42,646 nt of DNA. It comes from a virus. The stretch lies in IMG/VR virus record IMGVR_UViG_3300048916_000077, positions 1-42,646 of that record; one strand, written 5' to 3'. The notes beneath the pieces are model-generated. The model was not told where the DNA came from. It saw only the letters and a program-made list of their open reading frames with translations, and did no database searches. Below are positions 1,876 to 42,646 of the stretch, piece after piece (position 1 is the first letter of the stretch; the number at the start of each line of letters is the position of its first letter). A program made the translations under genes and the position numbers.

Positions 1876-2358
1876 TCAGTTCCCCTCTTCGACGGCGATC
1901 GTGGTCGCCTGATTAGCTGGGCAAATCGCGTAATACGCGTTGGTAGGAACCTTGGAATCGTACTGCTGTGATCCACCCTGAGACGGAAGCGGGCCGCCGG
2001 ATGAGAGGACATAACCCTGTCCAGAAACAGCAGGGTTTGCTGTTGTGATCGTGCAGGAATTTGCTCCGATGTTCATAAAGCTGAGGGATTTCCGGCCAGA
2101 ATTAGCGGCGATCAGGACTCCGGATGTTGCGGTGACTGATACGACAGAAATCGTGTTGGTCGTTTGGGTACTGGATGGGGAAACGGAATATTTTATATTT
2201 CCGTTTGCATCGCATTGAGTCAGTCCGACCTGACCATTCGATAGGGTCGGTGGCGACGTATTATAGACGCAACCCGGATAATCGCTCGGCGAAGAAGGAG
2301 CAGCCGCGGCGAGCGGGGAAACCGCCAGCGCCGCCAGAACGAGCAGAATGCGGCGCAT
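1876..2358 (-). CDS. Small exported protein (160 aa) with Sec-type signal peptide; function unknown, beta-rich
   Basis: ORF track. The N-terminus MRRILLVLAALAVSPLAAAAPS has a basic n-region, a hydrophobic core and an AxA-like site. An AAGGGA Shine-Dalgarno-like sequence lies about 10 nt upstream of the ATG. The remainder is rich in Ser, Thr, Gly and Asn. Confidence 0.7.
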   Translation of the reverse strand: MRRILLVLAALAVSPLAAAAPSSPSDYPGCVYNTSPPTLSNGQVGLTQCDANGNIKYSVSPSSTQTTNTISVVSVTATSGVLIAANSGRKSLSFMNIGANSCTITTANPAVSGQGYVLSSGGPLPSQGGSQQYDSKVPTNAYYAICPANQATTIAVEEGN

Positions 2359-2377
2359 GGCGATATGTCCCTTTCGA

Positions 2378-3613
2378 TCAGAAGTCCGACGAAGCCGTGA
2401 TCAGGCCGCCGCCGGTCGAGTTGCCCGATTGCAGGATGCCGGCAAGGCCCGCCGTATCGCCCGAAGCCACCGTGGCGGTGATCGACAGCGCATCCGTGTC
2501 GGAGACGCCGTTGGTGGTCGCCGCCGCCGCGCAGGCCGAGAGCGCCGTCTCGGTGCCCGCAACCATCCGCTTCATCGTGCCGAAGGTGCAGGCCACGGTC
2601 GGAGCCGCGCGCATCGTCACCTTCAGCGGGATGTTGCAAACGGCAACGGTGGTGCTCTGCGCCTCGCACATGCCGGGCACGACGGTGTAGCCGCTGACCG
2701 TCTCGGCCCACTGCCAGTAGTAGCGCTGCGCCTCGGCGAGCTCGCGACCGAAGGGCTGGATTTCATAGGTCGAGGCCGTGGTCAGGCTCTGCTCAAGCTG
2801 CACGCCGGTGATCGCCAGACCATCCGTCACGCCCGCGCCGGTGGCAGTCGGGGTGAAGCAGATGGCGACAGCCACCTCCTTCGTGGTGGTCGGGATGAAG
2901 ATCGGCGAGGAGGTGAAGCGCTGCCAGGAGCCCGTCACCGTGCCGGTCATGGTGCCGGTGGTGGCGATGCCGGTCCAGGCCGGGGTGATTGCCGGAGAAG
3001 CGGTCCAGGAGGCGAAGCCCTCATCCGCTGTGGTGCCGGTCAGGACATAGGCGCTGAACGCCCCGCCATTGTCGGTCACCAAGCCGCCCAGATCTTCGGC
3101 GTAGAGGCTGAGAACAACCTGCTGCCCCTGGACTGCCAAGGCGCGCCCGCTCGACACGCCTTGGAGGATGCAGACCGGCTGGGTCAGCGCGCCCGAGGTG
3201 CGATAGAGTTGGACGTTGTTAGGGAGGCCAGTCGGGCCGCCGGTGGTCGCCGCCACGGCGCGGCCGGCGCCGGAGGTCACGTTGACATCGCAGACCCAGC
3301 GATCAGTCGAATAGGCCGCCGTGGTCGTGGCCGAGGTCGTGGCGCAGGTGCGAATGCCGGTGCCGCGCTGCTGCACGGCCATGGCGCCGTTGTCGAGCAG
3401 GTTGCGCGGCGTGCTGAAGGTCGCCGTCGAGTTCGGCGTGATGCCGCTGTTGATCTGGCTGATCAGGTTGTTCAGGTCGTTCTGGTCAGCCGGGAAGCTC
3501 ACCGGGTTCGATCCGCTGACGCCGGTGAAGAAGGGCAGATTGGCCGCCCCCGCAAAGGGTGCGCCGATCAAAGCGCCGAGAGTAATCAGGGTACCCAGAA
3601 AACGCTTTGACAT
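2378..3613 (-). CDS. Tail-fibre-like / carbohydrate-binding-like protein (411 aa) carrying a Sec-type signal peptide
   Basis: ORF track. A GGGAG sequence lies 8 nt upstream of the ATG. The N-terminus is MSKRFLGTLITLGALIGAPFAGAAN. The motif NLLDNGAMAVQQRG resembles the NLLxNGxFxxWQRG motif I recall at the start of jelly-roll domains in many phage fibre proteins. The antisense 420-aa ORF is Arg/Gly-rich junk. Confidence 0.7.
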   Translation of the reverse strand: MSKRFLGTLITLGALIGAPFAGAANLPFFTGVSGSNPVSFPADQNDLNNLISQINSGITPNSTATFSTPRNLLDNGAMAVQQRGTGIRTCATTSATTTAAYSTDRWVCDVNVTSGAGRAVAATTGGPTGLPNNVQLYRTSGALTQPVCILQGVSSGRALAVQGQQVVLSLYAEDLGGLVTDNGGAFSAYVLTGTTADEGFASWTASPAITPAWTGIATTGTMTGTVTGSWQRFTSSPIFIPTTTKEVAVAICFTPTATGAGVTDGLAITGVQLEQSLTTASTYEIQPFGRELAEAQRYYWQWAETVSGYTVVPGMCEAQSTTVAVCNIPLKVTMRAAPTVACTFGTMKRMVAGTETALSACAAAATTNGVSDTDALSITATVASGDTAGLAGILQSGNSTGGGLITASSDF

Positions 3614-7727: not shown

Positions 7728-9442
7728 CAGTTGACCCCCTGTGCTGTCTGCTGCTGGTAGCCGAGAATCTGGTAATTCATGAATAGGTTGCCGATGCGGA
7801 ACCCGGCGCTCGACTGCCCGGTCACCTCGATCTTCATCTGGCGGAACACCAGCGCTTCCGGCCACGGCATCCGCCACGGCGACATCGGCGCCAGATCACC
7901 GTCCCAATTGTTGCCGTCCCACTGGAAATTCGTGTCCCACAGCGTCGTCGTCAGCCCGGTGCCGCCCCACTTGGCGTTGCCCCACTGGAAATTGCCCCAG
8001 ATCGTCTGCTGGCCCTGCGCCGGGTCGATCACCACCTGGGCGAGCCAGGAGCCGGCCGGGTCGGAGGCGGTTACCGTGGTCACCGTGTTGCCGCCGATGA
8101 AGGACATCTCGATATTCGTCTCGATGACGCAATTGTTCTTCATCTGGTGGTTGTCGGGCAGCAAGACCGTCTGCCAGTCGAAGGTCATCGGCTGGCCGTT
8201 CTCGATATAGGTCGAGACCGGCGAGGGCCGCACATCGGTGCGCCACAGCCGCGACGACACGAGGTCGGGCGTGATCGCGTTGGCGGCCAGGAAGGTGCCG
8301 CGCCAGGCGGCGATCAGCGCATAGGGGAAGCTGTGTGGCCCCGACCACGCCTTGAGCACGAAATCGAACCAATATTCCTCGAACGGGTTGCCGTACTTCT
8401 TCCCGCTCTTGATCGTCACCCGGTACACATTGCGGTTGAAGGCGGCGCAGATGCGGGTCGGGGCCACGGCGTTCTGGAACGGCACCGCGATGCCGTCACC
8501 ATTGCCGCCGATCGGATCGCCGAGGTTTCCGTTCACGTCGAGGATCCGCAGCCCGTCATGGTCGATCATGGCGATGCCGTAGGGCGTCGTGCAGATCGAG
8601 TTCTGCGAGACCGTGCCGCCGCTGACGTTCAGTTCGTTGATGTCCCAGACGCTCGGGATGCCGGTATAGTCGCCGGTGAGCTGGAAGATGACCGAGCCCT
8701 GCTCGCTCTCCTTGAACACCATCAGCGACTGCACCACGCCGCCAAGTTGGTTGTTCAGCGGAACGCCGGCCATCGCCGTGATCGGCGTGGACGAGCCGAA
8801 GAACAGCACCTGATTGGCGTTGGTGACCTTGAGCGGGATCTGCGCGTCTGACGCGACCAGGGCGTTATCGACGGCGTAATAGAGCCGGCCGCCCAGCTTG
8901 TTGACCAGCGACGGCGGCTTGATCAGCGGGTTGCCCTGCAGATTGCCCGAACTCCATGACACATGCCCCGGAACCGAGAGATCGAACCAGCCGATGAAGC
9001 CGTTCTCGTTGCCCTTGAAGCCGGGGTGCGTCACCACCAGGAAGGTGGACAGGGCCGAGACCGTGGGCGGCGTCCAGTCGCCGGTCTCCAGCGGGGAGTA
9101 CGGCACGTTGTCGATCGTCACGCCCGAGATCGAGGCGAGGGTGCGGGTCAGGATGTTGAAGGCGAACGGCTCATCCCGGCCGGGGAAGCGGCCGGTGCCG
9201 ATCATGCCATAGGCCATGTCGCCGATCACGAACAGCAGCGTCACGGCGCTGGGCGCGTCGAGTTCGGCAAAGGTCTCCTGCTGGATCGCCGCCGGCCGGC
9301 AGACATGGACGCCGCGCGTGGACGGGTCAGGGATCAGGTCGCGCAGCACCGACATGGCGCCGGGGAACGAGTTCGTCCCGTCGAGCGCATCGGAGAGGCC
9401 CGCCGGGCGCCATTTCAGTGGGGTTGCATTTCTGAGCGGCAT
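7727..9442 (-). CDS. Virion tail protein, possibly tail tubular protein B / nozzle-like (571 aa)
   Basis: ORF track. The call rests on its size, its position between an adaptor-like gene and the fibres, and an N-terminus (PLKWRPAGLSDALDGTNSFPGAMSVLRDLIPDPSTRGVHVCRPA) that resembles in pattern the start of T7-gp12-type proteins. The assignment is positional and by recollection only. Confidence 0.45.
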   Translation of the reverse strand: MPLRNATPLKWRPAGLSDALDGTNSFPGAMSVLRDLIPDPSTRGVHVCRPAAIQQETFAELDAPSAVTLLFVIGDMAYGMIGTGRFPGRDEPFAFNILTRTLASISGVTIDNVPYSPLETGDWTPPTVSALSTFLVVTHPGFKGNENGFIGWFDLSVPGHVSWSSGNLQGNPLIKPPSLVNKLGGRLYYAVDNALVASDAQIPLKVTNANQVLFFGSSTPITAMAGVPLNNQLGGVVQSLMVFKESEQGSVIFQLTGDYTGIPSVWDINELNVSGGTVSQNSICTTPYGIAMIDHDGLRILDVNGNLGDPIGGNGDGIAVPFQNAVAPTRICAAFNRNVYRVTIKSGKKYGNPFEEYWFDFVLKAWSGPHSFPYALIAAWRGTFLAANAITPDLVSSRLWRTDVRPSPVSTYIENGQPMTFDWQTVLLPDNHQMKNNCVIETNIEMSFIGGNTVTTVTASDPAGSWLAQVVIDPAQGQQTIWGNFQWGNAKWGGTGLTTTLWDTNFQWDGNNWDGDLAPMSPWRMPWPEALVFRQMKIEVTGQSSAGFRIGNLFMNYQILGYQQQTAQGVN

Positions 9443-33208: not shown

Positions 33209-34083
33209 AACTCGCCAGCCTCATCGACCGGGACATACCCGAGAAGGCGTTCAAGCTCGGCCCCGGCCTGCCCAACGCCAACATGCCGCCGCTGGCGCAG
33301 TGGTCCAGCATCGCCGGGATGCTCTGCGCCCCCGGCTGCGAGGCGCAGACGTTCCTCCTGCTGGCGTCCTTCGCCGCGCCGCTCATGTCGCTGTTCAAGA
33401 CGCCCGAGGGGGGCGGCATCGTCTCCATCCATGGCGGGAAGCGCTCGGGCAAGTCCGTCGCCCTGGCCGCAGCCGCTAGCGTGTGGGGAGAGCCGCGGTC
33501 GATAACGGTCCCGTCATGGGCGCCCGACCGGCTGGAGCGTATCGCCAAGCTGGGCAACTACCCGGTGATCGCCGAGGGTATGCTCAACCGAGACCCGGCT
33601 CACACCCGCGAGTTCATCATCGATTTCTTGACCGGTCACAAGCAGGAAACCCCGTGGCAGACACTGCTTTTATCGGCGACAGGGATGCCTTTGTTTTCGA
33701 CGGTGATGAGGACGGAGGATGCGCGGCCTGGGCTCGACCTGACCGTGAAGGTGCCGCCGATGCTGATCGAGCCGAAATCTACGGGTCGCCTCGAATATAC
33801 GTTGACGGCGTGCCGGGGCTGGGCTGGTTTGGCCTACCTGAGATACCTGTGCGCCAGCAATGTTACCCGCTGGGCGCGTGGTCAGCTTGTGTCTACCCTG
33901 GCCGGGTTCAACGATGATTTCGGCCTCGGCGAGGAATTCCGGTTCGTGCTGCGGACGATCGCCGCCGTGCATGTGGCTGGGATGATTGTGTCGCGGCTGG
34001 GCATCGTGGATGTGGAGGCCGACCGGGTGACGAAATGGGCCTTGGAGAAGGCCGTACCGCAGAAGAAGGAGAAGGCAGCGTGA
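33205..34083 (+). CDS. DUF927-like P-loop protein (292 aa, TTG start), helicase/primase-associated replication protein
   Basis: ORF track. GGGIVSIHGGKRSGKSVALAAAASVWGEPRSITVPSWAPDRLERIA follows the DUF927 pattern (P-loop, then SvWG.P....W..T.n.lE). Confidence 0.6.
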   Translation: MKLASLIDRDIPEKAFKLGPGLPNANMPPLAQWSSIAGMLCAPGCEAQTFLLLASFAAPLMSLFKTPEGGGIVSIHGGKRSGKSVALAAAASVWGEPRSITVPSWAPDRLERIAKLGNYPVIAEGMLNRDPAHTREFIIDFLTGHKQETPWQTLLLSATGMPLFSTVMRTEDARPGLDLTVKVPPMLIEPKSTGRLEYTLTACRGWAGLAYLRYLCASNVTRWARGQLVSTLAGFNDDFGLGEEFRFVLRTIAAVHVAGMIVSRLGIVDVEADRVTKWALEKAVPQKKEKAA

Positions 34084-34442
34084 CCACCGACATTGAGACC
34101 GAACGGCTCCGAGACGCTGTGGTGGAGGCGGCTTTGAACTGGTGCGGCGGACCGCAAGGTTTGGATGATAGCGCGGACCTGTTGGAACATGCAGCCGAAT
34201 CCCTCCGCGCCCACCTCGCCAAAGCCGCTCCTGCGCCTGAGTTTATGCCATGTCCCTTTTGCGGCGGCGAGCCGACGTATTCATGGGATGTGACATGCGA
34301 AGATTGGGATGTTCTTTGCACTTCCTGCCGTGCGACTGTGACTGCCGACACGGAACCGGCTGTGCTCGAAAAGTGGAACACCCGCCACTCCCCCTGCGTC
34401 CCCGATACTTCGCCTCTCCCCAACCAAGGTAGAGACCCCTAG
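34080..34442 (+). CDS. Second Lar-family-like zinc-ribbon protein (120 aa, GTG start)
   Basis: I trimmed the track ORF to GTG 34080, which forms a GTGA overlap with the upstream stop. The sequence contains CPFCGGEPTYSWDV...LCTSCRATVTADTEPAVLEKWNTRH. Confidence 0.55.
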   Translation: MTTDIETERLRDAVVEAALNWCGGPQGLDDSADLLEHAAESLRAHLAKAAPAPEFMPCPFCGGEPTYSWDVTCEDWDVLCTSCRATVTADTEPAVLEKWNTRHSPCVPDTSPLPNQGRDP

Positions 34443-34906
34443 CCGCCCCGGATCCGCGCCAGGATATCGCCCAGCTTGTCGCTCTGCTGCGACCGTAGCC
34501 GCGTCTCGTCCACCTTCGTCTGCGTGGACAGCACGGCTGCCAGGGTCTGCTGCTGGAACGCCAGCAGCTTCAGATAGTCGGGCATCGTCGGTTCCAGCCG
34601 CATCGACAGGATGTCGTGCGCCCGGTCGAGCGCCAGCTCGGTCAGCGCGGACAGCTTCTCGGACTGGCCTAATACTCTAAGCCCGTCGCGTAGCCCCTCG
34701 ATTGGATCATCGGCAACTGCTTCTTCAGCCTGGCCCCGATGTCCGTTCGATACATCGGGGAGTTGGGGACCTTCAAGGTCTTCAAAATGCGGTAGGCCAT
34801 CGTCGTCAGGCTGCTCTCTCATCCTAAAAACCGGCGCGCTGCGGACCAAGGGAAACCCTTCTTGTGCCGCTAATTCAGCCGCTCTTCTTCTTGCCCGACC
34901 AGCCAA
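34439..34906 (-). CDS. Last gene of the late operon (155 aa, TTG start); basic N-terminus; unknown function (small-terminase role cannot be excluded or supported)
   Basis: ORF track. A GGGAG sequence lies 8 nt before the TTG. The N-terminus is MAGRARRRAAELAAQ and the C-terminal half is helical. Confidence 0.5.
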   Translation of the reverse strand: MAGRARRRAAELAAQEGFPLVRSAPVFRMREQPDDDGLPHFEDLEGPQLPDVSNGHRGQAEEAVADDPIEGLRDGLRVLGQSEKLSALTELALDRAHDILSMRLEPTMPDYLKLLAFQQQTLAAVLSTQTKVDETRLRSQQSDKLGDILARIRGG

Positions 34907-34965
34907 TTTCGCTTCTCCCTGTAAGGAAAATTAACTATAATTTATCCACACAACGGAAGCCAGAC

Positions 34966-35499
34966 ATGAAAACGTGTACGCGCTGCAAGATCGAGCAACC
35001 TCTCGAAAATTTCCACCGCAATCGGTCACAGAGTTCCGGACGGCACCCAAGCTGCAAGGCGTGTTGCTCCGCATATGACCGACACCGCCACAAGAACAAT
35101 CCCGTCCGCAGGGCAAAGGCCCAAGCCAGGGCGCGGGAGCGCGTTCGAAGCCTTCCTCTCGTCCAGAAAATATATAGGCTCACCTACGAGTACGGACTTT
35201 CGAAAGAGCAGTATTACGAATTGATCTTCAAGCACCAAGGTCGATGCGCCGTTTGCAGCAGCGAGGCAGAAGACCACCATGGGTTGGTTATAGATCACTG
35301 CCATGATCGAGGCGTGATCCGGGGATTACTCTGCCAAGGATGCAATCTCGCTCTGGGCGCGGTAAAGGATGCACCGGACACGCTACGGAAACTTGCCGAC
35401 TATCTGGAAAAATCAGTAGTCGAGCCCGGAGGCGTAACCATTCCCATGAAGAAGGGGAAGCTGTTTCGAGAGCCGGTTCCCGATGTCCGATCGCCATAG
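34966..35499 (+). CDS. Endonuclease VII-family (Endonuclease_7) free-standing nuclease (177 aa)
   Basis: I trimmed the track ORF to ATG 34966. LVIDHCHDRGVIRGLLCQGCNLALG is the hallmark Endonuclease_7 motif, and there is an N-terminal CxxC...CxxC. It is the only plus-strand gene inside the late operon. Its 3' end overlaps the convergent ATP-grasp gene by 87 nt. Confidence 0.8.
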   Translation: MKTCTRCKIEQPLENFHRNRSQSSGRHPSCKACCSAYDRHRHKNNPVRRAKAQARARERVRSLPLVQKIYRLTYEYGLSKEQYYELIFKHQGRCAVCSSEAEDHHGLVIDHCHDRGVIRGLLCQGCNLALGAVKDAPDTLRKLADYLEKSVVEPGGVTIPMKKGKLFREPVPDVRSP

Positions 35500-36723
35500 A
35501 GGCGAGTTCGGGATTTTCACTTTCTTGACCGTTTCGTACATCTTCCGAGTGGTCGCGCGAACCGTCTCACCAGTGGCACTGACGACTAGAACGTAGTCGC
35601 CAGCGGTCACCAAGCATGGACCGGCTTTGATCTGACCATCCATGTCCTGCGGCGCCGATCCGAGCATACACTCACAGGGATGGATATTTTCCATTAGCTT
35701 GTCGGTGAGGCCGTAAATCGGCACGCCGCACACTTCCTTGCGGGTGATGTGGCTATAGGGAAAGTCAGGTATGGCGATGAGGCAGCCCGCCGCTACCGTG
35801 TCCATCTTGAAGGGCTTGGAGTCTTGCCCGTCTGCGAGCGCGGCCAGCCATTCTGCATGATCTCCGTCGATGAGCGCCTGTTGGATGTTGAAGGTAGGCC
35901 AGCCCGGCCGCATGGTAAACTCCAAAGGCCACGGCGTGCCGGCGTCGTCGATGATGCAGTTGACATCGACATAGCCGACATGGCCGAGGGAGACGAGGTA
36001 GTCCTCCAGCGGCGCGAGCACCTTGTTTGCCAATTTCGAGTTGCGAACGACGCGTAGCACGGTGCCCATCTCGCCCGTCTGCGGCCCGCACTCGCCGGCC
36101 ATCATCCGCTTGAACTCGAAGTTCTCGCACCAGCCGTCGCTGAACCCGTGAGGCCCTACCCAAGCCCCGACTGCCGCCTCTACGCCGCTGACCAGATCCT
36201 GCAAGATGAAGCGCATCCGCTTCCCGGCCTTCTTCCAACGCTGCAACATGTACACCATGTCGGCCGGGGTCTTGGCGACATAGGACATGTTCTTGTCGGG
36301 CTCATCGCCCAGCGGCTTGCTGGCGTAGGGCTTGCCGGTCTTCAGCACATAGGCAATGGCGTCGTCGTAGTTGGAGAATTCCTTGTACGGCGGGATGTCA
36401 ATATCGTGATCGGCAAACACCTTCATCGCCTCGGCGCGGTCGAGCTCCAAGGCGGCGCTGGCGATCGTCGGCCCGAGGATCGGCGTTCCTTCGCGGCGAT
36501 AGGGCTCAAGCTGGGAAAGGTATTTCACATTGTCGGGCATGAAGATGAAGTCGGCCCACCGCGCCCACGTCCGCCAGTCCGCAACGCGCTCGACCAGCCC
36601 CTTGCCGATCAGGCACGTCTTCGGGTTGTCGGGCACGTACCACTTCACCAAGTGCTTATCGTCCAAGCACCTCATAGCGAAGTCCAGGGCGAAAGCGCCT
36701 TGGTCAATGATGAGTATTTTCAT
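35413..36723 (-). CDS. PurD-like (glycinamide ribonucleotide synthetase-like) ATP-grasp ligase (436 aa)
   Basis: ORF track. The N-terminus is MKILIIDQG. LELDRAEAMKVFADHDIDIPPY marks the start of the ATP-grasp domain. FEFKRMMAGECGPQTGEMGTV aligns in pattern with PurD DHKR..dGD.GPNTGGMG. GYVDVNCIIDDAGTPWPLEFTMRPGWP aligns with G.LY.GLM....G.kVlEfN.RfGDPE. Confidence 0.75.
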   Translation of the reverse strand: MKILIIDQGAFALDFAMRCLDDKHLVKWYVPDNPKTCLIGKGLVERVADWRTWARWADFIFMPDNVKYLSQLEPYRREGTPILGPTIASAALELDRAEAMKVFADHDIDIPPYKEFSNYDDAIAYVLKTGKPYASKPLGDEPDKNMSYVAKTPADMVYMLQRWKKAGKRMRFILQDLVSGVEAAVGAWVGPHGFSDGWCENFEFKRMMAGECGPQTGEMGTVLRVVRNSKLANKVLAPLEDYLVSLGHVGYVDVNCIIDDAGTPWPLEFTMRPGWPTFNIQQALIDGDHAEWLAALADGQDSKPFKMDTVAAGCLIAIPDFPYSHITRKEVCGVPIYGLTDKLMENIHPCECMLGSAPQDMDGQIKAGPCLVTAGDYVLVVSATGETVRATTRKMYETVKKVKIPNSPLWRSDIGNRLSKQLPLLHGNGYASGLDY

Positions 36724-38201
36724 GGGTTCGTCGGGGTCGCGCCGGGGATCATCAGTTTCTGGTACGGCTTCGACAGCATGACCGATTGCGCGATTGGCTT
36801 GCCGGTGGCGAGCGCCATCAGCCCGGGCCGTCCGGTCGCCGCGGCACCAAGGCCCGATAGGAAGAAGTCCATGCCCGTGGATGGCGTGCCGCCGAATGCC
36901 TGCGGGCTCTGGAACGCCTTCGGGAAGCCGTTGGCCGCATCGGCGATGGTCTTAAGTTCGTTGGTGAACGGACGCCCCTTGAGCGCCAGCTTGCCGAGGC
37001 CGCGGGCGCTGACATCGCCCGTCGTCGGGTTCGTCGCCCCCTCGATGTCATAGGACTTGGCGATCTGCCGACGCGCGGCGCGGAACTGGTCGATCACCTT
37101 CGGCGGGGCGCTCTTGCTGACATTCCGCTCGACCAAGCTTTCCAGGCTGTGCGCCGCGTCGCGCTGCGCCAGGCCAAGGGCGTGCTTCTGCGCCGAGTAG
37201 TCGCCGGTCGCCTTGAGGTTGGCGTTGGCGTCGGAGCGCAGAAGCTTGATCTTCTGCATCAGCGCATCGGTCGGGACCGGATCGGTTCCGGTCTTGCCCC
37301 CGAGCGCCATCATGTCCTTCCGCAGATTGATGATCTCCGGGTTCTTCGCCGAGCGCGGGAACAGCTTGCTCGCTTGGCTGTTGACGCCGCCCAGGTCCGT
37401 CGCGGCCTTCTTGAAGGCTGTATCCGGCTTGACGGTCGGGACTGCCTTGGTGACGGCCTGATAGGCTTTCCCGGCCTCGTTGCGCACGTCGCCGAACACC
37501 TTGTCATTCAGCACCGTGTCGTCAGGCAGACCGAGCGCCTTGGCCGCCAGCTTGTTCGTCACTTCCTGGTTCTTGATCGAGGCTGCCTGAAGCGTCTCAT
37601 TTTTGCCGGCCACCTTGCCGAGCGCAGATGAGATGCCGCCCGGTTCCTTGCTGGCCGTGCCGGGCGTCAGAACATAGCCAGCGTCGCGCGCCGCCTGCGC
37701 GCCGGGACGCGGAGGACCACCGATCTTTGGCACAGCATCGGCGACGGCCTCGGCCGCACGGGGAACGGCTCGCACTGCGCTGCCGATCAGCTTTGCCTCA
37801 CCGCCGGGAGCCGCCATGCCAATACCCGCATCGGCCACGTTCGCAAGGGTCTGAGAGCCGGGCAGCTTCGTGTCACGAATGGGGTCGCTGACAAGAGCGC
37901 GGCCGGCGCCGGTTGCGGGAGAAAGGACTTGCTGCATCCCGCCCAGCGCCGTGCGAATGGCGCCGGTGAAGCGTCCGCCAAGATCGGCCTGCGGGTTCAA
38001 CAGATCGGCCTCGCCCTGCTTCACGTTCGCGCTGCCAGCGGAGAAGTCCTGCCCGATGTCCTTCGGGATGTTGGCGATGGGTCGCAGCGCGGCTGGCGTC
38101 TGCGCCTCGGGCTGCGCGGGAGCGGCCTGATACTTGGTCCACGGCCCGTCAGCGGATGGCGCTGCCGACTGCTGATACTTAAGCCACGGTTCGTCAGCCA
38201 T
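36720..38201 (-). CDS. Internal virion / ejection-protein-like protein (493 aa)
   Basis: ORF track. The N-terminal duplicated motif is EPWLKYQ / GPWTKYQ. The protein is Ala/Gly/Lys-rich with no enzymatic motif recognised. The call is positional inference. Confidence 0.5.
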   Translation of the reverse strand: MADEPWLKYQQSAAPSADGPWTKYQAAPAQPEAQTPAALRPIANIPKDIGQDFSAGSANVKQGEADLLNPQADLGGRFTGAIRTALGGMQQVLSPATGAGRALVSDPIRDTKLPGSQTLANVADAGIGMAAPGGEAKLIGSAVRAVPRAAEAVADAVPKIGGPPRPGAQAARDAGYVLTPGTASKEPGGISSALGKVAGKNETLQAASIKNQEVTNKLAAKALGLPDDTVLNDKVFGDVRNEAGKAYQAVTKAVPTVKPDTAFKKAATDLGGVNSQASKLFPRSAKNPEIINLRKDMMALGGKTGTDPVPTDALMQKIKLLRSDANANLKATGDYSAQKHALGLAQRDAAHSLESLVERNVSKSAPPKVIDQFRAARRQIAKSYDIEGATNPTTGDVSARGLGKLALKGRPFTNELKTIADAANGFPKAFQSPQAFGGTPSTGMDFFLSGLGAAATGRPGLMALATGKPIAQSVMLSKPYQKLMIPGATPTNP

Positions 38202-39733
38202 TACTGCTTTTCCCAGCTTTCCGGCTTGGACGGATCGCCGCCTTTGAACTTGTACCCATTCTCGACCGTGCCCACGGCGGGAGCGCCGCTGTCGGACGAC
38301 GCTGCCGGGGCATCTTCCTTCTTGCCGCCAACCCGCTGACCCTTGATCGCCTGCTCATAGGTCTGGATGCGGTTGTCGCCCTCGCCAAGCATCGCGTCGG
38401 CCACGGAATCGAATGACCTTGGCGTCATATTCGAATTGGCCCATTTCTGAGCCTCCTCGGCAGCGCCTTGGTGGAGTTGCGCGATGGACGCCTGACCACC
38501 GGATAGGATGCGGGCGGATTCCATCGCCGTCGCGCTCATGTGGTAGAACAGAGAAGAAAGGTTGGGGTCGCCCGTCCACTCTTCATCTTTTCTGATGATC
38601 GCATTGAGGATCGGCGACAGATCGGAGGATGTCAGTTTTTTCATATCGGCTTTGGTTTGCTCGATATTGTACTTCAACTGGCCGATAGCCTGCTTCGTCG
38701 CTCCAAGCATCTGGGTAAGCTGGCCCGCGCTCTTCTTCCCACTCTGGAATTCGATGGAGCGGTTGGCGAGTTCTATCCCGGCTTCCTCGTCCGACATGCC
38801 GGGGTTCTGCGCTTTGATTTCGAGACGCGCATCGGCCATTGCCTGCTGACGTGCTCGAACGGCCTCCTTGCCATAGCCGGGTATGATCTGGTTCAGCGGC
38901 TGGCCGGTCGCCACCTGGGCGGCAATCGCCTTGCGGTCTTCCGGCGTGGTCGGAATTCCACCCTTCGACGCCTCGAACTTTTCCCGGTCGAGCCCCAATC
39001 GCTGGGTCTCTATGCCCAGGCGAGCACCTTCCGTCCGCTCTGTGGCCTTGTCATGGCTAGTGCGCTCCTGCAGCTCGGCTTCCTGATGGACCTGCTCAAT
39101 GTGCTTTTGCACCGCCTCGATCCGATCTTTCAGGATCGGCTCAACCTGTTTCAGCATTTCCAGCCGCGAATGGAAGTCGGCGAGAAAGCGCTTCGGGTCG
39201 TTCGCGGCGGCCGGATCGGCGGCGAGGATGGCTTGCTTCTGCTGCATCCCCCAGTTGGCAAACCACGCATCCGGGTTCGATGAGGGATCAATCGGCGGCG
39301 CGCCAGCGGGCGGCCCAGCCTGTGGCGGCGGCGCTGCCTGCTGGCCGGGCTGCACCATCGGCTGCTGTGGCGGCGGGCCGCCCGGCATCGGCTGCGCACC
39401 GGGGATGGGCCCCTGCGGACCGGGACCGGCCATCTGCGGCTGCGGGCCATCGGGAAGCGACGGCTGACCCGGCATCGGCTGCTGTCCAGTCATCGGCGGC
39501 GGGCTGGGCATGGCAGGAGCGCCGGCCTGTACCGCACCGGGCAAGCCTCCGAAGCCGCCGGCCATGCGCGCGTCTGCTGCATCGGCTTCCTGCTGGCGCT
39601 GGATTTGCGCCTGCTGGATTTGCTGGTTCTGCTGCTCGATCGCCAGCCGCTGAAGCGCAAGCTGGCGCTGCAGGGCCTGATCCTGGGCTGCCTGATAGCC
39701 ACCGCCAACGGCGCTGAGTGCCGCGAGGTTCAT
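38201..39733 (-). CDS. Internal virion / ejection-protein-like protein (510 aa) with Gln-rich coiled coil and about 90-aa Pro/Gln/Gly-rich tract
   Basis: ORF track. Representative stretches are QRQLALQRLAIEQQNQQIQQAQIQRQQ and PMPGQPSLPDGPQPQMAGPGPQGPIPGAQPMPGGPPPQQP. The call is positional inference. Confidence 0.5.
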   Translation of the reverse strand: MNLAALSAVGGGYQAAQDQALQRQLALQRLAIEQQNQQIQQAQIQRQQEADAADARMAGGFGGLPGAVQAGAPAMPSPPPMTGQQPMPGQPSLPDGPQPQMAGPGPQGPIPGAQPMPGGPPPQQPMVQPGQQAAPPPQAGPPAGAPPIDPSSNPDAWFANWGMQQKQAILAADPAAANDPKRFLADFHSRLEMLKQVEPILKDRIEAVQKHIEQVHQEAELQERTSHDKATERTEGARLGIETQRLGLDREKFEASKGGIPTTPEDRKAIAAQVATGQPLNQIIPGYGKEAVRARQQAMADARLEIKAQNPGMSDEEAGIELANRSIEFQSGKKSAGQLTQMLGATKQAIGQLKYNIEQTKADMKKLTSSDLSPILNAIIRKDEEWTGDPNLSSLFYHMSATAMESARILSGGQASIAQLHQGAAEEAQKWANSNMTPRSFDSVADAMLGEGDNRIQTYEQAIKGQRVGGKKEDAPAASSDSGAPAVGTVENGYKFKGGDPSKPESWEKQ

Positions 39734-40689
39734 CCGAAGCTCCCGTAGCTGCCTGGGTCTTGGTAGGACTGGATCGGCTGGTACGAGAGCGTGCTGCCGT
39801 ATGTGCCGCCACTGACCGCCGGGAGACTGCCGCCCTGGTACTGATTGTACGCCTGCGACAGGCCGGAAAGGCCCTGGCCGAGGTTCTGGCCGATCTGCTG
39901 ACCTTGGTTGAACCCGATCTGCTGGCCGGTCTGGCCGATTCCGAGATAGCCCTGCGCCGCGCTCGATGCCGAGGAATTCAGGTTTGAGCCCTGCGTCAAC
40001 GCGCCCAGGCCGGCGTTCTGCATCCCGACGTAGGTGCTGTACGGCAGCGCCGAGCCGGTCGTGTAGGCCCCGGCCGCCGCGTTGCCCAGGTTGCCGCTGG
40101 CCGTGTAGGCGTTGCCGCCCTGGCCGAGATACTGGCCGTACGACTGCAGGCCGGACTGCTCGCGGGCAAGCTGGTTGTTGCGCCAGTCGATGTTGAAGTT
40201 GCCCAGCGTCTGGCCCAGGACGCCGGCGGCATAGGGCGAGTTGCCCACGCCCGTGGCCGACAGCCCGGCCAGGGTCTGGTCCTGGGTCTGTTGTAGCGTC
40301 CGGTTATAGAGCGCGTTCTGCGGATCGAAGGCGGTGTTGAGTTCCCGGTTGGCCGCGCCGAAGCCCCGGTTGGCCTCATTTCCGATGCGGGCGGAATCGC
40401 GCTGAAGCCTGGGACCGAGATTGCTGGTCAGGTAATGCCCCGCCCGCTCGGCGCCGGGGATGACGCCGCGCTGGTACGGGTTGCTGATGATGTTGCGGGC
40501 GATGGTGTTGCCGAGTTGGGCGTTGTGGGTCAGCCCATACATATTCTGCTGGGCGTTGGCATCGCCGCCCTGCTGGTTCTGCGGGACGTAGGCGTCGCCT
40601 CCACCGCCACCGCCACTATTTGCCATGCCATAGGCAGCGCTGGCGATGGTGGCAACTGAGGCGACTGCGCCCAAGGCGGCAAAAGGCAT
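39730..40689 (-). CDS. Gly/Gln/Asn-rich low-complexity protein (319 aa) with hydrophobic N-terminus; internal-virion-like
   Basis: ORF track. MPFAALGAVASVATIASAAYGMANSGGGGGG is followed by N/Q/G/Y-rich sequence to the C-terminus. Confidence 0.5.
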   Translation of the reverse strand: MPFAALGAVASVATIASAAYGMANSGGGGGGDAYVPQNQQGGDANAQQNMYGLTHNAQLGNTIARNIISNPYQRGVIPGAERAGHYLTSNLGPRLQRDSARIGNEANRGFGAANRELNTAFDPQNALYNRTLQQTQDQTLAGLSATGVGNSPYAAGVLGQTLGNFNIDWRNNQLAREQSGLQSYGQYLGQGGNAYTASGNLGNAAAGAYTTGSALPYSTYVGMQNAGLGALTQGSNLNSSASSAAQGYLGIGQTGQQIGFNQGQQIGQNLGQGLSGLSQAYNQYQGGSLPAVSGGTYGSTLSYQPIQSYQDPGSYGSFG

Positions 40690-40702
40690 GTGCGCTCTCC
40701 AG

Positions 40703-41260
40703 CTAAGGGAGGTCGCCCTCCGTCCGCGCGCATACTATCAGGGTAACCCTTTCGGTGTCACCGTTGTTTTCCACGCTGTGCGTCCGCAGATTGTCGAACG
40801 TCCAAGCCTCTCCCGGCTTCATGTGCACCCGGTCATGCTCGCAGATATTCACGCACTCCGGGTTGTTCAGGATCGGCAGATAGATTTTGCAGTTGTGGAA
40901 CTCGGCGTGCCATGAACCCCGGTCATCGTGCGGCAGGATCTGGCCGCCAGGCGGGATGCGCGTGATCAGGATCGCGCCCAAGTGCGTCGCCTCGACCAGC
41001 CGCATCAGGTCGAACACGATGGGCTTCAATGCCGGCAGGGCGTACCAAGCCGGGTAGAACTCACCCCAATGCGGCTCGCGGTAGTTCTTCGGCTCCTTGA
41101 GTTCGGCCATCGGGCGATAGCGCACCCAGATATCGGTCATCTCGGCGTGGACGCCCGAGCGGCGCTGCGGGTTCGCGTCCCACAGTTCGGGCGAGCGCTC
41201 AAGCTGATCACGCAGCGGGCGAATATCGATCCCGGTCTTCAGCAGGGTGAAGTTCTTCAC
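40703..41260 (-). CDS. Aspartyl/asparaginyl beta-hydroxylase-family cupin (185 aa), metal-binding triad intact
   Basis: ORF track. ITRIPPGGQILPHDDRG...CKIYLPILNNPECVNICEHDRVHMKPGEAWTFDNLRTHSVENNGDTERVTLIV follows the PF05118-type pattern (pG..i.pH.D ... R.HlPl ... GE.w.fD....H.v.N.g...Rv.Li). Confidence 0.75.
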   Translation of the reverse strand: MKNFTLLKTGIDIRPLRDQLERSPELWDANPQRRSGVHAEMTDIWVRYRPMAELKEPKNYREPHWGEFYPAWYALPALKPIVFDLMRLVEATHLGAILITRIPPGGQILPHDDRGSWHAEFHNCKIYLPILNNPECVNICEHDRVHMKPGEAWTFDNLRTHSVENNGDTERVTLIVCARTEGDLP

Positions 41261-41496
41261 AACGGTTCAATAATCTCGAACGGCTCGGTAAATTTGACCA
41301 TGAAGAACCCAGGCCCGTGCGGGCTGCCCGGATCGTACATCGCGAATTCGCCGGTCTCGAAAATAAGTCCTTTTGCTCCATCGTGGCCCGTTTGCACGCC
41401 CCTCAGGACCAAATCCTTCCCGCCTTTATAGGGCCGGAATATGGTGCCCGGCTTAACATCTTCTTCCCTGACGCTGACCACCCAAAGACCAATCAT
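41257..41496 (-). CDS. Small hypothetical protein (79 aa) inside the enzyme cassette
   Basis: ORF track. Its stop overlaps the start of the downstream cupin gene (4-nt ATGA-type overlap). No motif was recognised. Confidence 0.5.
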   Translation of the reverse strand: MIGLWVVSVREEDVKPGTIFRPYKGGKDLVLRGVQTGHDGAKGLIFETGEFAMYDPGSPHGPGFFMVKFTEPFEIIEPL

Positions 41497-41508
41497 GAAA
41501 ACCTCCGA

Positions 41509-42072
41509 TTAAAGCGCCGGCCCATAGATCGTCCGCAGCCCGGCCATGTTCTTCGTCCCGGCATCGATCACCGATTTGGCGTCGGTCTGCACGTTGACAT
41601 GGCCCCACAGGTCCCACCAGTGGCCCGGCATGGTCTCGCCGAGGCAGTGGCGGAAGATCCAGGCACAGGTCGCCTTGTCGTTCAGTTCCTCGAACCGGAC
41701 CACGATTGCGTGCGGGAGCCAGGAGGCCCGTTCGAGCTTCTGCGCCAGATGTTCGAGGAAGTGCCCTGCCATCGGATAGCCGATCCGCGCCATGCTGGCC
41801 CGCACCTGCGCTATATCGCGCCGCACGACCACCATGCGCGTCGCTGGGAGCGCCCTGGCGATGTCCTCGGCACGGAGGCCCAGCATTGTATCGGACAGCC
41901 CCACGCCCGCCCGCAGCGTCGCCAGCACCTCATCGAAGCTCCCCATGGTCGCTGTGCCCTCATGGCGGCACTCGCGGTCGCCGTAGGACAGGAAGTTCGC
42001 CAGCCACGCTGTTCGGCTCCGCGGCAGGCCGAGAACGCAGAACGGGTTATTCGGCATCGACCGGCACCACAT
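41509..42072 (-). CDS. NodH-like sulfotransferase-fold protein (187 aa; alternative ATG at 42057 gives 182 aa)
   Basis: ORF track. FCVLGLPRSRTAWLANFL resembles the 5'-PSB P-loop of NodH/Sulfotransfer-type enzymes (FAILAMPRTGTHYLEELL in NodH as I recall it). MVVVRRDIAQVRASMAR resembles the 3'-PB RxDxxxxxxS motif. Confidence 0.55.
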   Translation of the reverse strand: MWCRSMPNNPFCVLGLPRSRTAWLANFLSYGDRECRHEGTATMGSFDEVLATLRAGVGLSDTMLGLRAEDIARALPATRMVVVRRDIAQVRASMARIGYPMAGHFLEHLAQKLERASWLPHAIVVRFEELNDKATCAWIFRHCLGETMPGHWWDLWGHVNVQTDAKSVIDAGTKNMAGLRTIYGPAL

Positions 42073-42517
42073 CCACGACCAGGTGTATCCGGTCGTTCAT
42101 GCCCAGGTTGATCTCGCTGTGCAGCATCCGGTGATTGAGCAGCACAAGCTGGCCGACCGGCGCGACCATCGCATCGCCGCCGCAGTAGAGCCACGCGGCC
42201 GGCGACGGGACGAGGCAGACATGCACCCGCACCATCTGCTCGGTCTCGACGCTCTTTTCCTCCTGCCAGGGGGTGAAGCCACCGGGCGGCAGGGAGACGA
42301 TCTCAGCGCGGCGGATGAGGCAGTCGCTGTCGCCGCCGACCAGCCGCTTGATCCGGTTCAGCAGGTTCTTCGCCGACTTGAACTTCTCCAGCACCGGGCG
42401 GTCGCCTTCGGCATCGCGCAGCACGATCGAGCCGCCCATGAAGCTCTCGCGGTGCCGGACGAGGAGGTTGGCGGTCATCATCGACGTGTCGATGAAGCCG
42501 AGGGAGCGGAGGCTCAC
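42047..42517 (-). CDS. Second Asp/Asn beta-hydroxylase-family cupin paralogue (156 aa, GTG start) with altered first metal-ligand position
   Basis: ORF track. SLPPGGFTPWQEEKS...RVHVCLVPSPAAWLYCGGDAMVAPVGQLVLLNHRMLHSEINLGMNDRIHLVVDV follows the same family pattern as 40703..41260, but has W-Q-E where the paralogue has H-D-D. Its GTG start overlaps the TGA of the wrap-around fibre gene. Confidence 0.6.
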   Translation of the reverse strand: MSLRSLGFIDTSMMTANLLVRHRESFMGGSIVLRDAEGDRPVLEKFKSAKNLLNRIKRLVGGDSDCLIRRAEIVSLPPGGFTPWQEEKSVETEQMVRVHVCLVPSPAAWLYCGGDAMVAPVGQLVLLNHRMLHSEINLGMNDRIHLVVDVVPVDAE

Positions 42518-42646
42518 GTTAGGGTCACACCGATCTGATTTTCAACAACCCAGACTCCGCTAACCGCCTTTAAGACCAGAACCTGATTTGCCGCGTTCCA
42601 TGTGCATGTGGTGCTGGCCGTTCCACCGATCACATTGGTCAGCGCC
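42514..42646 (-). CDS. 3' end of the wrap-around tail-fibre gene (same gene as 1..1872; last sense codon plus TGA at 42514..42519, the rest duplicates bases 1..127)
   Basis: The frame from ATG 1872 places CTA at bases 3..1. In the end copy the same frame continues ...GTG ACC CTA ACG TGA. Confidence 0.8.
   Translation of the reverse strand, partial: ALTNVIGGTASTTCTWNAANQVLVLKAVSGVWVVENQIGVTLT
42520..42646. repeat. Terminal direct repeat, copy 2 of 2 (identical to 1..127)
   Basis: Direct comparison with bases 1-127. Confidence 0.95.

Follow-up and report, generated by a model that had tools for sequence, protein, structure and literature searches.

The ejection cassettes of podoviruses are known from phages T7 (gp14-gp15-gp16) and P22 (gp7-gp20-gp16) and neither is known to have an ATP-grasp ligase attached to it. 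Three consecutive genes after the tail genes likewise encode the internal proteins A, B and C of Xanthomonas phage PBR31, where the order is tail tubular A/B, acetyltransferase, internal proteins A, B and C, with the acetyltransferase (GNAT) preceding the cassette and no ligase. Here, a 42,646-nucleotide (nt) stretch of viral DNA was analysed (IMG/VR record IMGVR_UViG_3300048916_000077, positions 1 to 42,646; hereafter the window), in which a gene for a PurD-like ATP-grasp ligase adjoins a cassette of the same kind. In contrast to the podovirus cassettes, the ligase is here a conserved and usually overlapping fourth gene.

The closest described enzyme is glycinamide ribonucleotide (GAR) synthetase, PurD (EC 6.3.4.13; TIGR00877; PDB 1GSO, 2YW2, 2QK4), with which the ligase shares the N-B-A-C ATP-grasp fold, about 20–25% identity, the ATP-binding lysines, the Mg-binding Glu, the catalytic Arg, the G-x-x-T-G-x-x-G loop and the C-terminal R-x-D-I-G motif. 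Unlike PurD, the ligase family is without the GGREHA and APGNAG loops, has G[WY]P-x for GDPE, E-[FH]-K-[KR] for DHKR, GE[MQ]G for GGMG, ExT for ExN and G-D/x-Y-V for GGRV, and is encoded in phage virion modules or alone. PurK, PurT and biotin carboxylase belong to the same superfamily and share its acyl-/carboxy-phosphate chemistry, but are far more distant from the ligase than PurD is and have other substrate loops. RimK, LysX/LysW, the tubulin–tyrosine ligases and PafA/Pup may have a mechanism in common with it, the ATP-dependent acyl-phosphate activation of a protein carboxylate, but fall in other ATP-grasp or glutamine-synthetase-like clades. As regards enzymes packaged in phage particles, Alt of T4 and the virion RNA polymerase of N4 are examples. 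Enzymatic domains also occur in MuF ‘polyvalent’ head proteins; in the survey of these by Iyer et al. (2017), a search for the term showed ATP-grasp only in connection with RNA ligases (PMC5512222).

In the present analysis, the sequence evidence indicates that the window ligase is a PurD-fold ATP-grasp protein whose ATP and acyl-phosphate residues are intact and whose substrate sites appear rebuilt, that it descends from the PurD lineage within a separate large family predicted to use different substrates, and that in phages it is a conserved, apparently co-translated member of the internal-protein cassette. ATP-grasp ligases and ejection cassettes are both known; a PurD-derived family fixed in such a cassette, with putatively new substrate sites, appears to be undescribed in the sources searched, and a literature search for a phage PurD-like or ATP-grasp virion protein returned nothing specific.

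Sequence similarity and predicted structure of the ligase

35413..36723, minus strand: PurD-like ATP-grasp ligase, 436 amino acids (aa), ATG start; member of a distinct family, not GAR synthetase

The initial annotation had recognised a PurD layout from two motifs, both of which were found in the 436-aa translation (...NFEFKRMMAGECGPQTGEMGT... and ...PLEFTMRPGWPTFN..., the second, quoted as LEFTMRPGWP, being present as PLEFTMRPGWP). The similarity to PurD is far beyond chance. In a phmmer search of the Protein Data Bank (PDB), the ten best matches of the ligase were all GAR synthetases (E 4e-16 to 1e-3), and the TIGR00877 purD profile matched with an E value of 3.6e-20. An AlphaFold2 model computed from an alignment of 60 family sequences reached a mean predicted local distance difference test (pLDDT) of 92.4 and a predicted template-modelling (pTM) score of 0.90; when this model was compared with the PDB in Foldseek, 15 of the 15 best matches were again GAR synthetases (E 3e-31 to 6e-25, TM 0.67–0.76), followed by PurK and biotin carboxylase at E values of about 1e-18. 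The four-domain N-B-A-C fold of PurD is present in the predicted structure, and the fold and domain layout first proposed were thus borne out by the sequence search, the model and the structural comparison. Among the annotation resources scanned, NCBIfam gave the purD match only, below threshold, and the ligase had no match in PHROGs or PADLOC.

Substrate-binding and catalytic residues

Although PurD-like in fold, the ligase fell below the curated thresholds of the GAR synthetase profiles. Specifically, it scored 72.2 bits against the TIGR00877 purD equivalog (cut-off 288), 25.5 bits against Pfam GARS_A (gathering threshold 27) and 25.9 bits against GARS_C (34.8), and GARS_N was not detected in the Pfam scan. 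Residues were mapped to the numbering of human GAR synthetase (GARS; PMC2978367) through alignments with family members and Salmonella PurD, and a quantum mechanics/molecular mechanics study of PurD (PMC8880213) was also used for the comparison. In human GARS, the glycine site comprises D217, D295 and E297, and the GGRE loop contributes R13 and E14 (PMC2978367). Across 60 phage sequences, and in an alignment of phage and cellular members together, K136, K144, E182, K205, E268 and R272 of the ligase, equivalent to the ATP/Mg and acyl-phosphate residues, are invariant.

The positions that hold the substrates of PurD are changed. The Asp of DHKR (human D217) is E203 in the ligase, and GDPE is GWPT, in which the two residues holding the glycine amino group, D295 and E297, are replaced by W275 and T277; W275 is invariant across the 60-sequence family alignment. 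The GGRE loop (R13/E14) and the APGNAG segment that follows it in the N domain are absent, with variable residues in place of the loop; PurD is 20 residues longer here, and the N-terminal alignment is approximate. The phosphoribosylamine (PRA) site of PurD comprises this loop, the GPEAPL helix and the C-domain Arg of GGRV. In the ligase, the Arg of GGRV is Y377, while GGMG is GEMG and the Asn of the Mg-binding E-x-N motif is T270, a Thr in every family member.

These replacements are family signatures, retained in members only 25–30% identical to the window protein. The ligase is about 25% identical to Salmonella PurD, with the substrate residues altered, and its family forms a clade of its own, with an E-value gap of many orders of magnitude down to the true PurDs. 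Full conservation of the PurD substrate residues, named beforehand as part of what would mark an ordinary auxiliary gene, was looked for, and the residues were found replaced; together with the low purD score, this upholds the earlier view that the gene is no ordinary purine auxiliary gene. By these residues and scores, the ligase is not a PurD. Because Trp/Tyr and Thr stand where PurD has the two acidic residues for the amino group, the acid substrate is probably not free glycine, and because the Arg and the Gly-rich phosphate sites are lost, the amine substrate is probably not a sugar phosphate.

The ligase in the internal-protein cassette

36720..36723, minus strand: ATGA, in which the TGA of the 493-aa gene overlaps the ATG of the ligase gene (TCAT on the plus strand)
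36720..38201, minus strand: 493-aa internal virion (ejection) protein of the ‘internal protein C’ type, assigned by homology and synteny
38201..39733, minus strand: 510-aa protein, P/Q-rich N-terminally, then charged and helical; middle cassette slot, conserved position
39730..40689, minus strand: 319-aa G/N/Q/S-rich protein of cluster c3; first cassette slot

The proposed coupling of the ligase gene to an internal-virion-protein homologue was supported in the window by the ATGA overlap and by the homology of the 493-aa product, residues 171–483 of which share 34% identity with the ‘putative internal protein C’ of phage PBR31 (a name given by annotation only); the same product is 26% identical to gp43 of Methylophilales phage Venkman. 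Of 135 non-redundant loci, 65 have a 4-nt overlap between the start of the ligase gene and the large upstream open reading frame (ORF), and another 9 a 1-nt overlap, giving 74 loci with one or the other. No hydrolase domain was found in the 493-aa protein of the window in the Pfam scan, the 510-aa and 319-aa proteins had no match in Pfam, PHROGs or NCBIfam, and PHROGs gave no match for any of the three cassette proteins.

For synteny, ORFs were called and clustered in 89 sequences. A recurring order was evident, in which a GNAT (~155 aa) is followed by a G/N/Q-rich protein (~300 aa), a P/Q-rich coiled-coil-like protein (~400 aa), a protein of 500–1500 aa and the ligase. This order was found in most of the 80 fetched IMG/VR loci that reach far enough upstream; cluster c3 fills the first slot in most loci with sufficient upstream sequence. 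After the ligase block there is a strand switch, with the replication genes on the opposite strand. The same cassette order was found in Paraburkholderia prophages and in a Firmicute (Caldanaerobius) prophage, in which the large protein has an SLT lytic transglycosylase domain; in other relatives, the large protein contains Peptidase_M15 (L061) or gives a weak LPD38 match (L028). Large proteins of this type, with hydrolase domains, resemble the largest ejection protein of T7-like phages. The features of an ejection-protein cassette found here are consecutive genes after the tail genes, homology to an internal protein and a hydrolase domain in relatives.

Replication modules vary among these genomes, with PolA and primase in most loci and ERF, YqaJ and DUF927 in the window, and despite these differences the ligase keeps to the structural module throughout. 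No pur genes were present among the scanned genes of the window or in the precomputed annotations of L002–L004, and the ligase was never found with pur genes in the loci seen. A promoter and terminator scan of positions 34000–42646 gave counts not above those of shuffled sequence.

The Caldanaerobius polysaccharolyticus prophage (L104, 10001–11706) has the order 1369-aa SLT protein, ligase, 130-aa AdoMet_dc protein, holin and amidase. The AdoMet_dc product is a pyruvoyl decarboxylase with a TESH site, and the 3′ end of the ligase gene overlaps the start of the decarboxylase gene. The decarboxylase may hint at an amine substrate, although it neighbours the ligase in a single lineage only. A general polyamine link through AdoMet_dc was considered and set aside, the gene being a ligase neighbour in the Caldanaerobius lineage only (2 of 181 sequences).

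Sequence constraint and inteins

The median pairwise identity of the ligase was 57%, a value somewhat inflated because the loci were chosen by ligase similarity; in the same locus pairs, the cassette proteins and GNAT had median identities of 28–36%, and the polymerase and primase-helicase 33–40%. Of the genes compared between these genomes, none is as conserved as that of the ligase, which is subject to strong purifying selection.

About 16 of the 150 best representatives at 50% identity are 738–816 aa long and match the query in two stretches, as expected of an intein. The breaks lie at residues 220/221 (TGEMG|T, in the TGE[MQ]G loop; P0122, P0126, P0128, P0131–P0133, P0155, P0171 and P0185) or 270/271 (EFT|xR; P0173, P0182, P0217, P0218, P0225, P0229 and P0252). 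P0122 and P0173 were read directly and the other candidates were called from length and split matches. In P0122 the break follows ...TGEQG, and the inserted sequence starts with Cys and ends in ...CGN before the next Thr; P0173 is broken in the same manner after ...PTEWT. A LAGLIDADG_3 Pfam domain is carried by P0014 and P0027. The interruptions appear to be inteins placed in both catalytic loops of ligase family members, and inteins in catalytic loops are usual for active enzymes.

A portal–MuF fusion and cellular relatives

A distant member of the family is part of a larger protein. P0255 (1236 aa; L100, 2256–5966) is one continuous ORF adjoining the terminase gene and consists of an SPP1-type portal (PF05133, PF04860), a PurD-like module (GARS_A 4e-11, plus GARS_C) and a Phage_Mu_F domain (PF04233, 1e-9), the module bearing the family signatures E-W-T, G-Y-P and TGETGT. 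A sister protein in L101 (5926–8826) shares 59% identity with P0255 over the portal and 73% over MuF and has no ligase module, with a weak ART-PolyVal match at its C-terminus instead. The exchange of the PurD-like module for ART-PolyVal follows the pattern of exchangeable enzymatic cargo in MuF ‘polyvalent’ proteins (PMC5512222).

The closest stand-alone relatives of the P0255 module, about 40% identical to it, are encoded by single chromosomal genes in Micrarchaeota, other DPANN archaea and bacteria. The cellular homologues (L106, L107, L108, L181, L182 and L183) share the family signatures and constitute an uncharacterised PurD-like paralogue family, and no recurring partner gene was seen in their six neighbourhoods. 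Because these homologues stand alone, the reaction would be independent of virion proteins.

Size and spread of the family

In a collection of 5.8 billion proteins, the best 120 matches were 54–84% identical to the window protein, in addition to one identical copy, and many of them lie on contigs of 40–44 kb. An exhaustive HMMER scan of the 50%-identity cluster representatives gave 195 with E <= 1e-30, and at least 576 loci with the family were found in IMG/VR. Among the 50,697 deposited phage records of INPHARED, only MW202796, an uncultured genome, carries the ligase (43% identity), and the BFVD library of viral protein structures had no close match. In 185,579 species genomes, the ligase was found on mis-binned contigs of phage size in metagenome-assembled genomes. 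Prophage regions of two cultured strains, Paraburkholderia rhynchosiae WSM 3937 and Paraburkholderia sp. C35 (L096 and L097), carry the gene at 45–46% identity, and the Caldanaerobius polysaccharolyticus prophage holds a more distant member. Cluster members are named ‘phosphoribosylamine--glycine ligase’ by JGI, and in virome papers viral purD appears among the auxiliary genes for purine synthesis; by the sequence evidence presented above, the family, which is present in many hundreds of genomes of uncultured phages, is wrongly labelled.

One member, P0231 (523 aa), has a C-terminal extension (~415–523) with a HAD-like FDLDKTL motif and no Pfam hit, which might link the ligase to a phosphatase step.

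Endonuclease insertion and neighbouring genes

34864..35499, plus strand: Endonuclease VII gene of the free-standing homing type (PF02945 2e-22; phrog_2633 8e-37)
34669..34815, minus strand: relic 3′ end of the PurD-like gene, frame translation ...MAYRILKTLKVPNSPMYRTDIGARLKKQLPMIQSRGYATGLEY followed by a stop
34439..34822, minus strand: small helical gene, conserved core 34442–34669; the called ORF extends 5′ into the relic
40703..41260, minus strand: 185-aa Asp/Arg beta-hydroxylase-type cupin, LpxO-like (PF05118 2e-12; weak LpxO match)
41509..42072, minus strand: 187-aa sulfotransferase-like protein (weak Sulfotransfer_3/4; phrog_10855 3e-11)
42047..42517, minus strand: 156-aa second Asp/Arg-hydroxylase-like cupin (PF05118 8e-5, 22.9 bits against a cut-off of 22.6)

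The 3′ end of the ligase gene in the window has been remodelled. The final 87 nt of the ligase gene are shared with the Endonuclease VII gene, which runs on the opposite strand and lies within about 745 extra nt (roughly 35585 to 34807) that have no counterpart in the related genome L009 and that hold, besides the endonuclease gene, a replacement 3′ end for the ligase gene. The relic downstream corresponds to the original last ~45 ligase codons, ending ...AYRILKTLKVPNSPMYRTDIGARLKKQLPMIQSRGYATGLEY before the stop, and shares 97% DNA identity with the true 3′ end of the ligase gene in L009. As shown by the relic and the replacement 3′ end in comparison with L009, the insertion therefore left the ligase ORF intact. 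Being the most conserved gene compared and host to both inteins and a homing endonuclease, the ligase would seem to matter greatly to the phage.

A tblastn search with the 76-aa core located a gene for a small helical protein of ~75–95 aa in at least 54 loci, 0–60 nt beyond the stop codon of the ligase gene, for example at 8563–8784 of L006; in the window, the small gene has been displaced from the ligase by the endonuclease insertion. The initial annotation had placed the ligase at the end of the virion block, and this was correct as to the late block but not as to the last position, which belongs to the small gene. Its product, with the consensus ...L.LA..A..IL...L.P....F..LL........VL.T..RVDE..LR....D.L..LL., had no match in Pfam, PHROGs, the PDB or cultured phages, and could be a partner of the ligase. 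A role for it as acyl donor or carrier with an activated C-terminal Gly or Glu, by analogy with LysW or Pup and with the glycine that PurD uses as its acid, was rejected as unsupported, as its C-termini are not conserved and no residue is invariant. The proteins neighbouring the ligase showed no conserved motif for an acceptor or a donor.

Between the tail genes and the cassette, the window has the two cupin genes and the sulfotransferase-like gene, enzyme types that modify proteins or envelope components, at the place where most relatives have GNAT. Homologues of the 156-aa cupin were present in 24 related loci.

Possible functions of the ligase

The reading towards which we lean, tentatively and at somewhat less than even confidence, is that the protein is an active carboxylate–amine ligase which is packaged and ejected with the internal proteins and acts in the next host. 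Such an enzyme would phosphorylate a carboxylate other than free glycine and pass the acyl group to an amine other than a sugar phosphate. It would be loaded into the capsid with the internal proteins and, once in the ATP-containing cytoplasm of the next host, would act on a conserved target, as enzymatic cargo comparable to the effector domains of the MuF ‘polyvalent’ head proteins. Three observations make delivery to the next host the best single reading, namely the fusion of the domain with portal and MuF in one member, its coupling to the largest ejection protein and its high conservation across phages of different hosts. An enzyme expressed late would be useful mainly on particles being built or when carried to the next cell. 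The wider proposal that many tailed phages package the ligase and deliver it to the next host, where it would early on transfer an (amino)acyl group to a conserved cellular or phage target, is rather doubtful at present.

Several observations weigh against delivery. The window ligase, unlike MuF and other packaged enzymes of this kind, is free-standing, with delivery only predicted for it; fusion to Phage_Mu_F occurs only in the distant P0255, a single lineage ~31% identical to the window protein. At the six cellular loci, the homologues are monocistronic, with housekeeping neighbours and no phage genes nearby, and in view of them the chemistry could involve a small molecule. Having Thr where PurD has the Mg-binding Asn is uncommon and may point to an activity that is changed or lowered, the choice of loci by ligase similarity somewhat raises the apparent conservation, and a cultured phage with the ligase was not found in INPHARED or BFVD. 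Moreover, accessory genes (‘morons’) are classically found where a late operon ends.

The enzyme could instead stay in the producing cell and modify a cassette protein or another virion protein before packaging, for example through a reaction of the kind carried out by RimK, LysX and the tubulin ligases, in which a carboxylate of Glu/Asp or of the C-terminus receives an amino acid or amine. We consider this unlikely. Translational coupling to the largest internal protein, the sharing of the cassette with enzymes of protein-modifying types (GNAT in most relatives, the two cupins and the sulfotransferase-like protein in the window) and the conserved small protein encoded directly downstream would all fit such a role. 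However, the putative substrates evolve much faster than the enzyme, the C-terminal residues of the small protein are not conserved and a single column of its alignment, a Leu, is nearly invariant, the cellular homologues are without such partners, and cultured phages with GNAT and the three internal proteins do without the ligase. The identity values and the lack of such neighbours in the cellular loci also weaken the initial suggestion that the neighbouring low-complexity proteins are the substrates. Of the kinds of target proposed initially, a virion protein, DNA or the host, none was singled out by the results. About as improbable is a late reaction on a small molecule or nucleic acid with no connection to the virion, such as formation of a polyamine or amino-acid conjugate or the modification of DNA or nucleotides, the place at the operon end then reflecting a moron-type insertion. 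The stand-alone cellular homologues suggest a general biochemical reaction of this sort, a universal small substrate would suit the very high conservation, and the amine-producing AdoMet_dc decarboxylase is the next gene in the Caldanaerobius prophage. Set against this are the travelling of the ligase with the structural module while replication modules differ, the restriction of the AdoMet_dc neighbour to that one lineage among 181 sequences, the lack of nucleotide-modification pathway genes among those seen in the window, and the portal–MuF fusion, which places the domain in the head.

The two remaining explanations leave out a new ligase activity. A catalytically dead PurD fold, reused as a structural or chaperone part of the internal core, would agree with the Asn-to-Thr change at the Mg site in every member and with co-translation with structural proteins; it is nevertheless highly improbable, as all other ATP-grasp catalytic residues are invariant in phage and cellular members, the inteins sit exactly in the two catalytic loops, and stand-alone cellular homologues exist. 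Least probable of all, and barely credible, is the reading as an ordinary auxiliary metabolic gene, with a genuine GAR synthetase as its product and more purine synthesis as its effect. The JGI name, the virome listings of purD and the PurD fold speak for it, but the TIGR00877 score, the absence of GARS_N, the replaced glycine and PRA residues, the late structural-operon position and the lack of other pur genes in the window do not. PRA, moreover, decays with a half-life of seconds and is presumed to be passed on by PurF (PMC2978367), which also argues against this role.

If delivery with the ejection proteins is correct, an ATP-dependent ligase would join the short list of enzymes injected by phages and a new ATP-grasp specificity would be opened to study; action in the next host would represent a class of injected enzyme, and of covalent modification, that had not been recognised before. 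The prophage copies in cultivable Paraburkholderia and Caldanaerobius strains make these predictions experimentally testable.

The window genome and gene calling

The window has a GC content of 62%, and long antisense ‘shadow’ ORFs exceed the real genes in length. For example, a 420-aa plus-strand ORF at 2348–3610 shadows a 411-aa minus-strand gene that is called in other assemblies, and in L096 (9986–11581) an antisense shadow ORF covers the ligase gene, the small downstream gene being likewise shadowed. Longest-ORF gene calling is unreliable here because such shadow ORFs outgrow the real genes; shadow calls were set aside, and tblastn and the sources’ own gene calls were used. Other assemblies of the same phage measure 42,012–42,549 bp, and in these a 625-aa gene is called upstream of the 156-aa cupin gene. 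Because that gene would span the window ends, the window looks to be a complete circular or terminally redundant genome, cut in or near the 625-aa gene.

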